From: Puniceicoccales bacterium
GTDB taxonomy: Bacteria > Verrucomicrobiota > Verrucomicrobiia > Opitutales > JAIRLM01
Reading direction: 5' to 3'
NCBI GenBank assembly: GCA_031268535.1
Contig: JAIRXB010000006.1
Span: 35,996-99,995, forward strand
DNA: 64,000 nucleotides
Below are positions 1 through 9,000 of this stretch, in pieces; position 1 is the stretch's first letter; every line of letters starts with the position of its first letter. The position numbers were made by a program.

Positions 1-3000
1 GACGGTGAAAAACTCCGGAACCGAATGGCGCATCCTCCACGGCAAAGGCGAGACGGCCGTAAGCTGCAGCCTCTGCGGAGAATTTAATGGGCGCAACTGC
101 ACCATGGCAGTTTTAGCGGCACACCATTCCATCGGCAGAGCACTCCCCGATAGAGTAGATTTGCGAAGTTTTTCCGGAGTCAGAAGGAGGCAGAGTCTGC
201 TGCGCAACGACGGCAAGTGCATCGTCTACGAAGATTTTGGCCACCACCCCAGCGCCGTTCGGGAGGTACTCTCCGCAATGCGCCTGCGGCATCCGCACTG
301 CGAACTAATTGCCTGCTTCGAACCTGCATCGATCACTTCGGCGAGCGGCGTCCTGGCCGCCGACTTCGTTGGCGCATTTTCTCTGGCGGACCGCTGCTAC
401 TGGGCAACGGCCACTAGGCGGCAGGCCAATGGCGGCGATGGGGCGGCGGAAACTGTTGTGTCTGCCCTACGCAGCCGCGGCATAGACGCCGCAACCTTTG
501 GCAACAACGGCCTTCTGCTGGACCGTCTTTTGGCCATAGTGTCGGCGCAGTCGAACCGGATGCCGCTAATTGTGCTATTTTCAAGCGGCGCCTTTCCGGT
601 CGTGCTGCCCCACTGGAAGGGAAGCGGCGATGGAAGCCACTAAGACAACAGGCAAATCGCCATGGAGGCGGTTCCTCCTGGCATTTTTGTCGTCCGCCAT
701 ACGCCTATGGTGGCGAACGCTATTCATACGAATTGATCCCGCCATCGGCCGCTTCACCGCCGAGAAGGGCCCATTTCTCGTCGCCCTCTGGCACCGCGAC
801 ATTTTCTCCACGGGAGAAATTTACCACCGCATTGGCTGCGGAAGGAGAATGTTTGCCATGGTAAGCCCATCGGGTGACGGCGAGTGGCTAGCTGCGCTTT
901 TCGAACGCATTGGAATCCATTCCCTGCGCGGTTCCAGCGGCCGCGGCGCCGCCCGCGTCTATGGCGCCGCGCTGAAATGCATCGGATCCGGCAACGACCT
1001 GGCAATCACCCCCGACGGACCGCGTGGACCGCGCTGCCGCTGCAAAGGTGGAATTGTGCGCATGGCGGTCGGCACAGCAACGCCCATAATGGCTCTTTCC
1101 GTAAAATACGGAGCCGCCTTCCGGCTGTCCACCTGGGACCGCATGCGCATTCCGCTGCCATTCTCAACGCTAACGGTCAGAGTGTCCTACGTTGAGCCGG
1201 CCACCTTGGCGTCGCTGGAAAGTCAGAGCGAACGGGAAAGCCTCATCGAGGGGACGCTACTGAGCCAAACCTAGCACAATTCAGCTAATCAGTCCCATAA
1301 GCAAATCTCGCGCAGCGGTCGCCATTCGGAAAAGGGCCGTTGCAGTGGCCTTGTGCGAATTTTTATGCGGATGGCACATGCGTGCAACCTTCCTGAATGC
1401 ATCCCTAATCTTTTTTCATCCCGCGCATCTTCTTCGCATAGGCCAAGTAAACACACATACATCGGCAAATTTCTCCGCTAGTCGGCCACACTTTCGGCCT
1501 TTTCGAACGCACCATCGCGCCGGTCGGACCGACCACTCTCCCAGCAACAGGAAAGCGTCCTTATTGCGGAAAATCCAAGCTTTTTAAGCTTCTCTTCTGC
1601 GCGTAGCAAATCATTTTCGCGTGACCACTTCCCGATTAGGTGTGCGCTTAACTCCTTCCGCCGCTCAGAATTATCTGGGAGAAAAAACGCCTCGACAGTC
1701 CTCCCCGTCGAACTCGAATCAAAAACTACGTCAAGCGCATCTTTGCCGCTACGCAACCTTAGTAGTCCAATTGACGCATCATGAAGCCAAAGAAGCCGTA
1801 TGTTATCTCCTAGGGTAAGCATAACAAGACTGCAATTGCAAACCACCACACGGCTAACGGTCGAAAGTTTGGATAAGTCAAACAAGTGCGGAACAGTGTT
1901 GCGCGGGTCACGGGACGTGGCCACGGAAATTGTTATTTCCGACAGGGCAAAAATAAACAGATCCCCTATGGGGATTCTTTTGAAGTTACTAAGCCCAATT
2001 GAAATATCGCACGTTCCGTCGCCGTTGACTGCTGTAATTGCGCCTTTACTTCTCGCAGCGCCGCCGAGCATATCTATTTTTCGCCCACATGCGCCGCCAT
2101 CGCAAATGGCTCGCAAAACGAGAAAAACATAGGGATTGAGAGGATCGAGAAAACCACTGCGCAGGGAATCTCCATAGATCATATAAATTGCCGGCAAAAC
2201 CGTCAGACCAAGACTGCAAATGGCAAAAAAGCAGTACAAAATGGTGCCGCAGCAGCTATTCCTTAGGCAAACCGCTCCGCCAATGGCCTCTGCCGCTTCG
2301 CCCTCTGACACATCGGCGCGATAAGCCACAGATGCAACTATTTGTGATCCGCAAAAAAAATCAAAAAATGCATCTTCGACACACAAACACCTTGATGCGG
2401 TGCACGGACGTAAACTCATGGGAGCCATATGGCTGAAGCTCTCCGAATGTAAAGCGCATTTCCAATTTCAGATGCCTCCTAGTGAACAAATCCATCTGGA
2501 AACGCCGCATCAATTCGGCGCGCAACCTATGCCGCCAATGGCAGCACATTCGCAATTTACGTAGCCATTGCCATTGCCCTCCGGCAACATACGCACGCCA
2601 CTTGCCCATGCTGCCATTTTGCCCCAAATGGCATTGGCCTGTGTGGCAATCTTCTCCAATGTAATGGGGAACCATTGCCGTCGGCGCCGTGGCGCTTTTC
2701 GAAAAAATTATTACCTTTGGAGAGAACATTTTCTAGCCCCGATCCCGGGCGAATCATCGAGCGGTGCCCATTCCCAATCGCCCTCTGGCACCGTGACATT
2801 TTCTCCACTGGGTAAATTCACCACCGCATTGGCATCCATTCTTTGCGCGGCCACATCACAAGCCCGACCAAAATGCAGATTGCCGCCACTGGCCACTAGA
2901 ACTGCCGCTGCTGCCATTCTCAACGCTAACGGTTAAAGTATCCTACATTGAGTCGGCCACCTTAGCGTCACTGGGAGGGAATCAGAGTGAACGGAAAAGC

Positions 3001-6000: not shown

Positions 6001-9000
6001 GCGTTTTTGTCAGCGGGAATAGCCGCTTGCCCTCTCCGCCACCCATTATGACGCACAGAACATTTGGCCGACTCACGGAGAAATTCTACTGAACACTTGA
6101 GTTTTTACAAATGCAAACGGAACGCTCACCCAAAACCCTCCGCCGCTTTCAGTTTCATTTCCCAAAAGAAAAAATTGTCCAGCACTGCCCATTGGCGACC
6201 ATTTTGTCGCCATCAGCTTTGCCCAGACTGATTTGGACGATCCAGGCCGTCCATCAGAGCGCAGAGACGCAGCTCCTTTTCCTGGCCGCCGTCAAAACTA
6301 AAATGCAAGTCCGGAAAACGGCGGACTTCCATGGCGCCGCATAGCATATGGCGCAGTTTTTTCTTCTTGCCGCGCAGAAAGGCGAGACAGGCGGCAACGC
6401 TTTTTTCGTCAGGCGCCGAAAAAAATACGCGCGCATGGGAAAGATCCTCGTCCACCAGGACGCGCGTTACGGTTAGGAGCGTGCACTCGCTGCCAAAATT
6501 TCGCCGCAGAATCGATCCCAATTCCCGCTGAATGGCGGCTCCAAAGCGAAACCCTTTCCCCGGCACCGCCATGGCCCTACAGACTCGCCCTGATGCGGTT
6601 AACCTTATAGCACTCGATCACGTCTCCAACCGCATAGGATCCGTAGCCAGAAATTAGCACGCCGCATTCGTACCCTGCACGCACCTCGCCGACGTCAGTT
6701 TTTTCCCTCCGCAGCGATGAAATTTTGCCGTCAAATATTTGCTTACCTTCGCGCCACAGCCTGGCATTGCCATCCCGCAAAACCTTTCCGTCCGTAACCA
6801 TGCAGCCGGCCACAATGCCCTTCGACAAAACAAACACCTTTCGCACCTGCGCTCCGCCCAATTTCTCCTCCTGCAGCTCCGGCTCGAGAAGGTCAGCCAT
6901 GGCGTCGCGGATGCCGTCCAGGGCCATATAGATTACGTTGTATCGCAACATCACCACGCCGTGCTGCTTAAGGGCAGCTTGCACGCCATTTTCGGCCTTT
7001 ACGCCAAAGGCCACGATGGTGGCGCCAACGGGCCTAGCGAAATCAACATCGCCGAGTGATACGGGACCAACGTCGGAACGTATTATCTCTAGGCCAATTT
7101 TATCCTGCGGCAAAGTCTCAAGACATGCGCAAAGGGCCTCAACCCTGCCGTGCACGTCGCCCTTCACTATGAGGCGCAATAGGCGTTTCTGCTTAGCGTC
7201 GATGGCGGCAAATAGAGCATTAAGACTGTCGCTGTCGGCGGCCTGGGAGCGCCTACGCTGCTGCGGCTGAGCCTTTTGGGGCGAGTCGTCTCCGCGGGAC
7301 GCATTCGCGCAACACTCTTCCGCCATCTCGCGGGCAACTCTTTCGCTTTCGGCGTATGAAAACGTAGATCCCGCGTCTGGAGCGTGGTCCCAGCCGATAA
7401 TTTTCACCGCTTTCGACGGAAGCGCCTCCTTCACCGGCCTGCCGCGGTCATCGACCATGGCGCGCACTTTGCAGCAATTTTCACCGCAAACTAGCGCGTC
7501 GCCAACTTTCAACGTACCCTGCACTATGATGGCCGATGCAGTTGGTCCGCGCCCCGTTTCGATTTGCGACTCCAGCACCGTTCCCTCCACGGGCCCATTG
7601 CGATCGGCCACAAGGGCAAGCATTTCCGCCTGAACAGCCACCAATTCGAGCAGCCTACTAACGCCGTCGCCGTTCAGCGCCGAAATGTCGCAGCACAGCG
7701 TTTCGCCACCCCACTCCTCTGGCGCTATGCCGCGCTGCTGCATCTGCTGCCGAACGCGTTCCCCATTCGCCCCCTTGGCGTCAATTTTATTGATGGCCAC
7801 AACCACCGGAACCGATGCGCGCTGGAGAAATTTTAGCGCTTCGTCCGTTTGCGGCATAAAACCGTCATCCGCAGCAACAACCAAAATTGCCACGTCCGTA
7901 ATGGTGGCTCCCCTTTCGCGCATTTTTGAGAAGGCAGCGTGTCCAGGCGTGTCAATGAAGGTTATGACTGAATCGTTTATGCTCACTTCATATGCGCCGA
8001 TGTGCTGCGTTATGCCGCCGTCTTCTCCTGCGGCAACATTTGCCTGGCGAATGCGGTCCAGGAGCGTCGTCTTGCCGTGGTCAACGTGGCCAAGTACGCA
8101 AACGACCGGCGGACGCGCCTCCAGCACAGCTTCGCTTGCACTCTCTTTGGCGACAACCTCTCGCCGCACCGCTGTGGGGCGCTCCTGGCGAGCCTCAATG
8201 GCGATGGAAAGCTTTTCGCCGATGCGCTTAGCCAAAGCCTCGTCCACGAGATAATTCATGGAGGCAAATATGCCCAGCTGCATGAGTTCCGATATGAGCT
8301 GGAACGGCTTAAGTCCGACCTCCGGAGCAAACTCCCGTACGCACACGGGGAATTTTAGGCGCAGCACATTGTCGGCGCCGCGCTCTCCGCCAACTCGCTC
8401 CACATGTTGGGGCCGATTGGCCGCCATTGCTCCTCCGCTGGAGGCCATTGGATGTGGCGGCCTCGGTGGCGGCTTCGAAAACCCATTGCGCTGCGGCTGC
8501 CGTCCGCCGCTTTGCTGAAATTGCTGCCGAGCCGGAGCGCGGAAAGCCCCAGTCGATCCGTGGCGCCGCTCTGGACCCCTGTTAAATCCTGGAGAAAAGT
8601 GGCACCGCTCGCCGCTGCGCTCGGCAGGCGCTAGCGCCTTGCCGCCGGCCGGCTGTCCGTGAGGCTGCTGTCCGTGAGACTGCTGCGGACGCCCACCGGA
8701 AAAATGCCACTGTGACTGCTGGCCACCGCCACGCCTATCCTGGTTTCCTCCAAAATTTCCTCCGCCGAATTGGCGCCTGTCGTCCTGCGCCGGTCCTCGC
8801 TGCCAGTATCTTGGAGTGCCAAAACGGCCAGATGACTGCTGAAGTTTCTCGAGGGGAACCATGCGCCGCGGCTCCTGCGTCGCCTGCGGCTGCGCTCGGC
8901 AAAGAATTGGCATCACGGCACTTCTCTGCTCACTGGCGGGAGCCCTTTCGGCGTCGGTTAAGCTTTTTCCGCCGCAAAAGGCCACGGCGACAGCAGCACA

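Follow-up and report, generated by a model that had tools for sequence, protein, structure and literature searches.

A probable fossil tandem duplication between DUF374 and glgC in a Puniceicoccales bacterium: dead flanking fragments less diverged than the orphan genes beside them

Introduction

In a stretch of 64,000 nucleotides from contig JAIRXB010000006.1 (hereafter the window), two related orphan genes, designated paralogs A and B, are found between an intact gene of the DUF374 family and an intact glgC gene, and the two paralogs are separated from each other by a 3' fragment of glgC and a 3' fragment of DUF374. This locus raises the question of whether one tandem duplication, followed by decay, is sufficient to explain the arrangement, as had been proposed in a sequence-only reading of the window. 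In the analysis reported here, the dead flanking fragments were found to be several-fold less diverged than the genes beside them. The explanation favoured, which is given about an even chance of being correct, is an old intragenomic tandem duplication in which gene conversion, with the intact genes as donors, later renewed the dead flanks.

Duplication joins seldom survive in natural bacterial genomes, so that the timing and mechanism of paralog birth are usually unreadable from sequence. At the present locus, a half-dead domain has been preserved together with both paralogs and the join itself. The paralogs are recorded only from a single 105,430-nt contig of the metagenome-assembled 'Puniceicoccales bacterium' (Verrucomicrobiota). 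Paralog A has the database record MDR1435743.1 (locus tag LBI39_00855) and is annotated as hypothetical, and paralog B has the record MDR1435744.1, with the NCBI name 'J domain-containing protein'.

Topology of the Probable Duplication

Positions 1-8000 of the window were compared with themselves, and the collinear diagonals expected in a self dot-plot of a duplicated segment were seen at offsets of ~1760, ~2000 and 2290-2320 nt. For the DUF374 part, 761-836 matched 2758-2833 (84% identity, offset 1997), 907-931 matched 2826-2850 (88%), and 1147-1281 matched 2903-3042 (86-89%, offset 1756-1761), with 38 of 40 positions (95%) identical within 1242-1281; the stretch 1154-1281 vs 2910-3042 stood at 86%. 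For the remainder of the unit, 1962-2770 and 4249-5084 formed a single unbroken alignment (61% over 857 columns, E=1e-46, offset 2287-2319), which spans the glgC tail, the 5' intergenic stretch and ~155 codons at the start of A and B. The three offsets of 1997, 1756-1761 and 2287-2319 are unequal only because of later insertions and deletions (indels). The 86-nt spacer at 3043-3128 was without a counterpart in copy 1 (p=0.28).

The order DUF374, A, glgC remnant, DUF374 remnant, B, glgC, read earlier from the sequence alone, is real and lies on these diagonals. It matches exactly the footprint predicted for a tandem duplication that runs from inside DUF374 to inside glgC: the copies are adjacent, collinear and direct, a novel junction is present, both outer genes are full length, and the truncation of the inner fragments coincides with the junction. 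The property of a tandem duplication that was not found is equal neutral divergence in all parts. The duplicated unit would comprise ~2 kb, with the 3' part of DUF374, the J-domain accessory gene and the 3' part of glgC. Copy 1 takes in the intact DUF374 gene from 761 onward, and the last ~92 codons of the intact glgC lie inside copy 2. The features of the locus are listed in Table 1.

Table 1. Features of the duplicated locus (window coordinates)
Feature	Position	Strand	Evidence
Intact DUF374-family gene, 214 amino acids	630..1274	+	Pfam DUF374 (PF04028) 75 bits, cut-off 26.8
Vestigial J domain of A	1281..1468	-	Pfam DnaJ 30.4 bits, E=4e-7, cut-off 27.8
Paralog A, intact 316-codon open reading frame, N-terminal orphan domain only, TAG stop 1478-1480	1478..2428	-	homology to B
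Intergenic stretch 5' of A, with homology to 4737-4798 between glgC and B	2429..2478	-	31/50 identical, 12 nt gaps; 0/1000 shuffles as high
glgC 3' remnant, last ~92 codons and stop, 5'-truncated, dead	2479..2757	-	74.3% identity to 4799-5075
Join point, glgC-derived and DUF374-derived sequence head to head	2751..2770	.	three-way comparison of remnant, glgC and DUF374
DUF374 3' remnant, 5'-truncated, dead	2758..3035	+	blocks 84%, 88%, 89% identical to the intact gene
Patch apparently copied from Gly-repeat unit of paralog B, same orientation	2862..2908	+	32/36 to 3626-3661 and 3725-3760
Paralog B, 535 amino acids	3129..4736	-	Pfam DnaJ 46.1 bits, cut-off 27.8, residues 477-528
Intact glgC, 425 amino acids	4799..6076	-	Pfam NTP_transferase (PF00483) 187.6 bits; LbH_GLGC (PF25247) 114.4 bits

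The Join and the Dead Fragments

Aligned to its intact counterpart, the glgC remnant showed six indels, five of which are not a multiple of three and shift the frame. In the DUF374 remnant, an in-frame TAA was identified at 2813-2815, where the intact gene has GAA. The repeat CGCATTGG occurs at 828 and 906 in the intact DUF374 gene and once, at 2825, in the remnant, which marks a 77-nt deletion joined at 2826-2833; a deletion between these two repeats had been correctly recognised in the sequence-only reading. Further downstream, a 50-nt filler (2853-2902) stands in place of ~215 nt. The frameshifts, the TAA and the deletions indicate that both inner fragments are dead.

The interval to which the join was assigned holds GTGCCCATT (2764-2772), the counterpart of GGCCCAAT (5079) and GGCCCATT (768). 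The short shared string at which the junction had been proposed to lie is thus present, but GGCCCA(A/T)T is not uniquely identifiable as the crossover, and the placement holds only to ~2751-2770. The similarity at the join amounts to at most 6-8 nt. To the left of GCCCA, DUF374 matches the remnant at five of nine nucleotides and glgC at three of nine; because DUF374 fits slightly better, the crossover may sit 10-15 nt to the left of the proposed microhomology. The description of the junction as a chimeric glgC-DUF374 fusion has no translational sense, since the two fragments point in opposite directions, facing away from each other.

An arrangement of this kind could also be produced by an assembler, either by concatenation of two strain variants or as a chimeric contig. 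The genome was assembled from a metagenome, and the locus is present on a single 105-kb contig, with no independent assembly in the data searched: neither A nor P0002 matched a contig as an exact protein, and scans of metagenome contigs with the A/B profile and with the exact 24-nt junction pattern gave neither a relative nor a match. However, no stretch of exact identity between the repeats is long enough to have confused an assembler; in the best block, 38 of 40 positions agree, and the similarity at the join is as short as given above. The inner fragments, moreover, are dead, with frameshifts, a stop, deletions and a foreign patch, unlike strain variants of working genes. On both grounds, the absence of a long exact run and the death of the fragments, an artefact is considered highly improbable.

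Unequal Divergence across the Unit

If the unit was duplicated in one event, neutral divergence should be equal across its whole length. The DUF374 fragment differed from its parent at 29 of 226 sites (87% identity, Jukes-Cantor (JC) distance 0.12-0.18), the glgC fragment at 70 of 272 (74% identity, JC 0.315), and the vestigial J domain of A differed from the J domain of B at 72 of 153 sites (53% identity). At 4-fold sites in identical codons, A and B agreed at 20 of 47 positions (43%, JC ~1.09). The divergence of the two fragments differed significantly (p=3e-4), as did that of the J vestige and the glgC fragment (p=1e-5), and the 4-fold identity of A and B was below the 63.5% expected at the age of the glgC fragment (p=0.003). 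For comparison, the glgC genes of the window and of the nearest relative (L021), with 83% amino-acid identity, agreed at 75 of 176 4-fold sites, which equals the figure for A and B. The earlier proposal of a single duplication followed by decay is contradicted by these values, with A and B near saturation at 4-fold sites, and their inequality implies that a further process is needed beyond one duplication. Judged by synonymous and third-position divergence, the duplication itself appears to be old.

The history of the fragments was resolved with relatives as outgroups. The homologues used were a DUF374 protein 65% identical to the intact one (L001, residues 17-213) and glgC products 83% (L021) and 73% (L022) identical. 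Each relative shares only the query gene with the window, with the exception of a Mur ligase-DUF374 pair in L001, so that the state before the duplication is not readable from them. Gene order is strongly rearranged in this group.

Polarised with the L021 and L022 genes, the changes at codon positions 1, 2 and 3 numbered 16/18/20 in the lineage of the glgC remnant and 4/5/10 in that of the intact glgC. The remnant pattern differed from that of functional glgC genes (18/13/49; p=0.015), and its uniformity implies that the fragment was non-functional throughout its separate history. The fragment groups with the resident glgC, with which it shares the derived YVNCEC, against L021 and L022. For DUF374, polarised with L001 over 188 sites, 13 changes were derived in the remnant and six in the intact gene. 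Remnant-derived neutral change was thus 13/188 for DUF374 vs 46/273 for glgC (polarised with L021 only), a 2.3-fold difference. Since both lineages show ~2.3 times less change on the DUF374 side, two ages are indicated, and not two levels of constraint. At one place within 4799-5075, the intact glgC carries the derived FFDGRHGCGD, including a one-codon deletion, where the fragment, L021 and L022 keep FFEKRHG.DG; with the derived state in the working gene, the fossil fragment here preserves the older sequence of that gene.

The combination of an old cassette and a young join could be obtained without gene conversion in several steps, in which an ancient A-B tandem pair was followed by a larger duplication of DUF374'..A..B..glgC' and then by the reciprocal loss of one B and one A. 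This would require two independent clean deletions. The 5' intergenic homology of A runs straight into the glgC fragment, which is unexpected if B once lay between, and the unequal age of the two flanks is left unexplained. Such a series of events is regarded as very unlikely.

The same combination might arise in one step, and without intragenomic duplication, by allele capture. Here, two strains would have had old, deeply diverged alleles, A and B, at a variable accessory-gene slot flanked by DUF374 and glgC, and these would have been brought into tandem by homology-facilitated illegitimate recombination (HFIR): an incoming DUF374-A-glgC' segment would be anchored by upstream homology, and its opposite end would be attached illegitimately within the resident DUF374. 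Several observations are in line with this, namely an atypical GC content at third codon positions in the cassette (0.48-0.53, vs 0.62-0.68 in neighbouring genes), the absence of the A/B family from every other genome or metagenome searched, and a gene order in L001, L021 and L022 that breaks exactly at the cassette borders. HFIR with joins of 3-10 bp is known in three transformable bacteria (PMC6382021). However, the lineage of the glgC fragment has no third-position excess, which implies that a donor glgC had not appreciably diverged as a functional gene before capture; capture would then require near-identical flanks around deeply diverged alleles. The flanks would still differ 2.3-fold in neutral change, and no second allele-bearing strain is known. 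Allele capture is the main rival of the favoured explanation, but is considered unlikely.

Paralog A and Its Vestigial J Domain

Paralogs A and B share 31% amino-acid identity over 304 residues (E=2e-30), with a nonsynonymous divergence (dN) of ~0.81 across the entire N-domain and a synonymous divergence (dS) of ~1.8. Candidate -35/-10 elements for A were noted at 2735-2707, inside the glgC fragment. In the sequence-only reading, A was thought to have lost both the Gly-rich region and the J domain by deletion. The J domain, however, persists behind A as an almost entire vestige, so that the loss of the domain occurred via a stop codon and a frameshift, and not via deletion. The Gly-rich linker (~150 codons) does differ by an indel, which may represent either a loss in A or an expansion in B.

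The first part of the vestige lies in the frame of the A open reading frame, behind its TAG, and the frame is broken by one single-base loss in an A6 run at ~1406-1414; the vestige is otherwise open. In three-frame translation, the frame of A reads ESVAD, the stop and then RRNLPMYVCLLGLCEEDARDEKRL, and after a shift of one base in the A6 run it continues as DAFRKVARMCHPHKNSHKATATALFRMATAARDLLMGLIS up to a stop. This second piece by itself gives the DnaJ score of 30.4 bits. Helix I (LLGLCEEDARDEKRL) was located at 1406-1450, an HPH, once the catalytic HPD, at 1365-1373, and the stop TGA at 1281-1283. The repaired vestige is identical to B residues 477-527 at 22 of 51 positions (E=1e-11), and a nucleotide match of 1358-1446 to B 3215-3304 was obtained with a score of 21 vs 11.0 +/- 1.4 for shuffles. 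With the TAG, the frameshift and the HPH, A contains no intact translated J domain with an HPD; it is now an N-domain-only protein, the J domain having been cut off by these three changes.

The nucleotide identity of the vestige to the J domain of B is 63/59/37% at codon positions 1, 2 and 3, with dS saturated. This pattern implies that both J domains were long under purifying selection, so that the inactivation in A is recent, in line with the single frameshift in ~200 nt.

It had further been suggested that 1410-1445, read as YAKKMRGMKK, resembles the C-terminal LLRKHFGHKK of B. This resemblance is spurious, as it lies in the wrong frame and is ~45 codons out of register. Instead of the C-terminus of B, bases 1417-1446 align to 3275-3304, with GLCEEDARD vs GISEEDAMD in helix I of the J domain.

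At the TAG of A, an inverted match of 28 nt was observed, in which 1468-1495 corresponds to the reverse complement of the glgC start region at 6058-6085 (23/28). Its score of 18 stands against 13.4 +/- 1.3 (maximum 17) for shuffles, and 6.7% of the natural 60-mers of the window reach 18. The match is a borderline case, and may reflect either chance or a further templated patch formed where a deletion left a scar.

The Gly-Repeat Patch in the DUF374 Remnant

The presence of a patch resembling the Gly-repeat units of B inside the DUF374 remnant, as described earlier, was borne out. When the filler at 2853-2909 was compared with the whole window on both strands, the best match was 3615-3661, with a score of 29 vs 13.4 +/- 1.3 for shuffles (maximum 18), ~12 standard deviations above them. 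The B units at 3626-3661 and 3725-3760 are identical to each other at 28 of 36 positions. At all sites that distinguish the units, the patch (2873-2908) has the base of one or the other; no change is private to the patch, vs four for each B unit. The patch therefore resembles the ancestral repeat unit. This would mean either that the Gly region of B changes faster than the adjacent dead DNA, or that the template was a third unit which is now lost. The patch shows, as an independent trace, that ectopic templated repair has acted on the DUF374 fragment.

A faster change of the Gly region, at which the patch hints, is of importance for another explanation, by which the duplication was recent and both paralogs, also at synonymous sites, evolved at 2-6 times the rate of the adjacent neutral DNA as a result of positive selection plus a locally raised mutation rate. 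The dN of A and B is indeed far above the neutral expectation based on the flanks, and both are orphan genes of a fast-evolving kind. However, protein-level selection cannot explain saturation at 4-fold sites (20/47 identical) or at third positions in the J domain (37% identical), and the codon-position pattern of the vestige is that of purifying, not diversifying, selection. No mutator element, for example a reverse transcriptase, was noticed in the surroundings of the locus, the one part of the window inspected for this. Accelerated evolution after a recent duplication is judged quite unlikely.

Paralog B and the Orphan Family

Paralog B consists of an N-terminal orphan domain (3807-4736), a Gly-rich linker of ~160 residues (~3305-3806), which contains two 99-nt repeat units with 72% identity, and a C-terminal J domain (~3129-3310). 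The J domain scored above the profile threshold and has its HPD within KWHPDKN. In the N-terminal part, a hydrophobic helix at residues ~66-90 is followed by the beta-rich orphan domain. Tandem Repeats Finder reported no array in the Gly region, and Rfam gave no match above threshold.

In a search of 5.8 billion proteins, and also in an exhaustive comparison of 1.84 billion representatives with HMMER, the only A/B homologues found were A and B themselves. The remaining matches were to a short Tudor-repeat motif: the motif GxITAxxxxGTCDxxIG, present in B at ~4250-4340 (residues ~133-162) and in A at ~1980-2060, corresponds to the unit repeated in long Tudor-repeat proteins of eukaryotes (Pfam Tudor_5) and has no bacterial match. 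With the N-domain, too, the sole remote matches were to Tudor-repeat proteins of eukaryotes, in a short GxIxxVxxDGTCD motif. At this motif, three short strands are predicted in the structure model. Relaxed scans of Pfam and NCBIfam for N-domain families were empty. The AlphaFold model of the N-domain was poor (mean predicted local distance difference test score (pLDDT) of 54), and a Foldseek search of the PDB with it gave no significant match, the best being leucine-rich-repeat domains (E=0.1). B may bring DnaK to the binding target of the N-domain, and A would keep the binding part only.

Formation and Maintenance of the Locus

After the alternatives described above, the old duplication with later gene conversion is considered further. 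The duplication would have been produced by illegitimate recombination that linked a point within glgC to a point within DUF374, with at most a few bases of microhomology; the two 5'-truncated gene pieces, placed back to back, would be the fossil of this join. Selection would then have retained both accessory genes as J-domain proteins for most of the time. Selection on A is suggested by its open reading frame of 316 codons, which has stayed open although the indel density of the glgC fragment predicts ~17 frameshifts per 948 nt. More recently, the TAG stop, the homopolymer frameshift and the change from HPD to HPH disconnected the J domain of copy A. The intact DUF374 and glgC genes, ~2 kb away, would have re-copied the dead flanks by non-allelic gene conversion at two separate times, after which the neutral decay of the fragments would resume. 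Conversion of this kind would fit the difference in age between the two remnants.

A number of points weigh against this explanation. A conversion tract was not demonstrated: the block 2549-2660 of the glgC fragment is 83.6% identical to its parent vs 67.9% elsewhere (z=2.9), with a permutation p of 0.12. Conversion must also predate the deletions which are now present in the DUF374 fragment. The sample of 4-fold sites is small, at 47 sites with an estimated identity of up to ~0.58, so that the excess age of A and B depends on p~0.003 together with the third positions of the J domain. Bacteria tend to delete dead DNA, and a long retention of neutral fragments is unusual. Finally, there is a single assembly of the organism, and no second strain.

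In a broader proposal, which is held to be doubtful, either the cassettes were never identical, being ancient alleles of a hypervariable slot joined by HFIR, or the dead fragments were kept young by concerted evolution, and either way the birth of genes and the loss of domains in this uncultured lineage of Verrucomicrobiota would be shaped by template-switching repair. If true, the role of template switching would rest on two templated patches at deletion scars, the Gly-repeat unit and the borderline inverted copy of the glgC start. 

For the dating of duplications, the locus implies that the join is an unreliable clock, and that ages taken from flanking pseudogene pieces would be wrong.

Gene Order and Other Features of the Window

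On the minus strand, the order of genes is nusA, infB, rbfA, glgC, B, the antisense DUF374 fragment, the glgC fragment and A. The intact DUF374 gene is encoded on the plus strand, convergent with this run, and is preceded by a Mur-ligase gene. No NCBIfam model matched DUF374. The intact glgC product, which is 83% identical to P0012, has a nucleotidyltransferase domain and the left-handed beta-helix of GlgC at full length (LbH_GLGC profile positions 1-135 of 135), as expected for a GlgC; its NCBIfam equivalog scores of 468 and 389.5 were under the strict cut-offs of 537 and 424.9. No further copies of any of the four genes were found in the window. The view that the paralogs lie next to essential genes was not supported: essentiality is unlikely for glgC, and no function is assigned to DUF374.

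A second pair of tandem paralogs was observed on the minus strand at 12297-14357, where two Macro-domain genes coding for 314 and 369 amino acids are adjacent. Their identity is 85.6% over 834 nt (12394-13226 vs 13368-14179), and the duplication is much younger than that of A and B. On the plus strand, a single open reading frame of 2653 codons was identified at 20712-28673.

Comparison with Known Systems

Copy divergence and domain loss are textbook processes. What would be new at this locus is a well-preserved natural case, in an uncultured lineage and with an orphan gene, together with one instructive oddity, namely an apparent flank age that disagrees with the age of the genes.

Like the membrane-anchored J-domain co-chaperones of the DjlA type, paralog B has a hydrophobic helix close to the N-terminus and carries a J domain with an HPD at the C-terminus. 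In contrast to DjlA, the middle region of B is unrelated, and a Gly-rich linker of 160 residues precedes the J domain. An assignment of B to DjlA was rejected, since NF006948 gave 17.6 bits against a cut-off of 162, with the match on the J domain only.

Tandem duplications with joins formed by illegitimate recombination, as studied in the laboratory in Acinetobacter baylyi, Salmonella and E. coli, are likewise direct multi-gene repeats with a novel end-to-start junction, at which there is little or no identity and at which genes are truncated while remaining intact outside. Joins with so little shared sequence are usual in experimental systems; in the amplification of A. baylyi cat, for example, they have 0-5 bp of identity (PMC9997567). 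However, the laboratory duplications are young, identical and unstable, whereas the present one is fixed and small (2.0-2.3 kb), with copies down to 31% amino-acid identity. The fragments at its join are still recognisable, and their divergence is at odds with that of the genes they flank.

In natural transformation, foreign DNA can be taken in by homology-facilitated illegitimate recombination, as reportedly described by de Vries and Wackernagel in 2002 (cited in PMC6382021). In this process, a homologous anchor and a microhomology join of 3-10 bp can place the foreign DNA beside its resident counterpart. The product thus mimics a duplication. In the present case, in contrast, no sign of outside DNA was identified, and the glgC fragment bears no signature of a functional past in another lineage.

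The re-copying proposed for the flanks has its closest parallel in concerted evolution. Non-allelic gene conversion is known between nearby bacterial repeats, such as duplicated tuf genes and rRNA operons. As in these systems, nearby direct repeats at this locus would be more alike than their age predicts because of re-copying. The difference is that the recipients here are dead fragments and the donors working genes, with conversion being suggested by the discordant divergence only.

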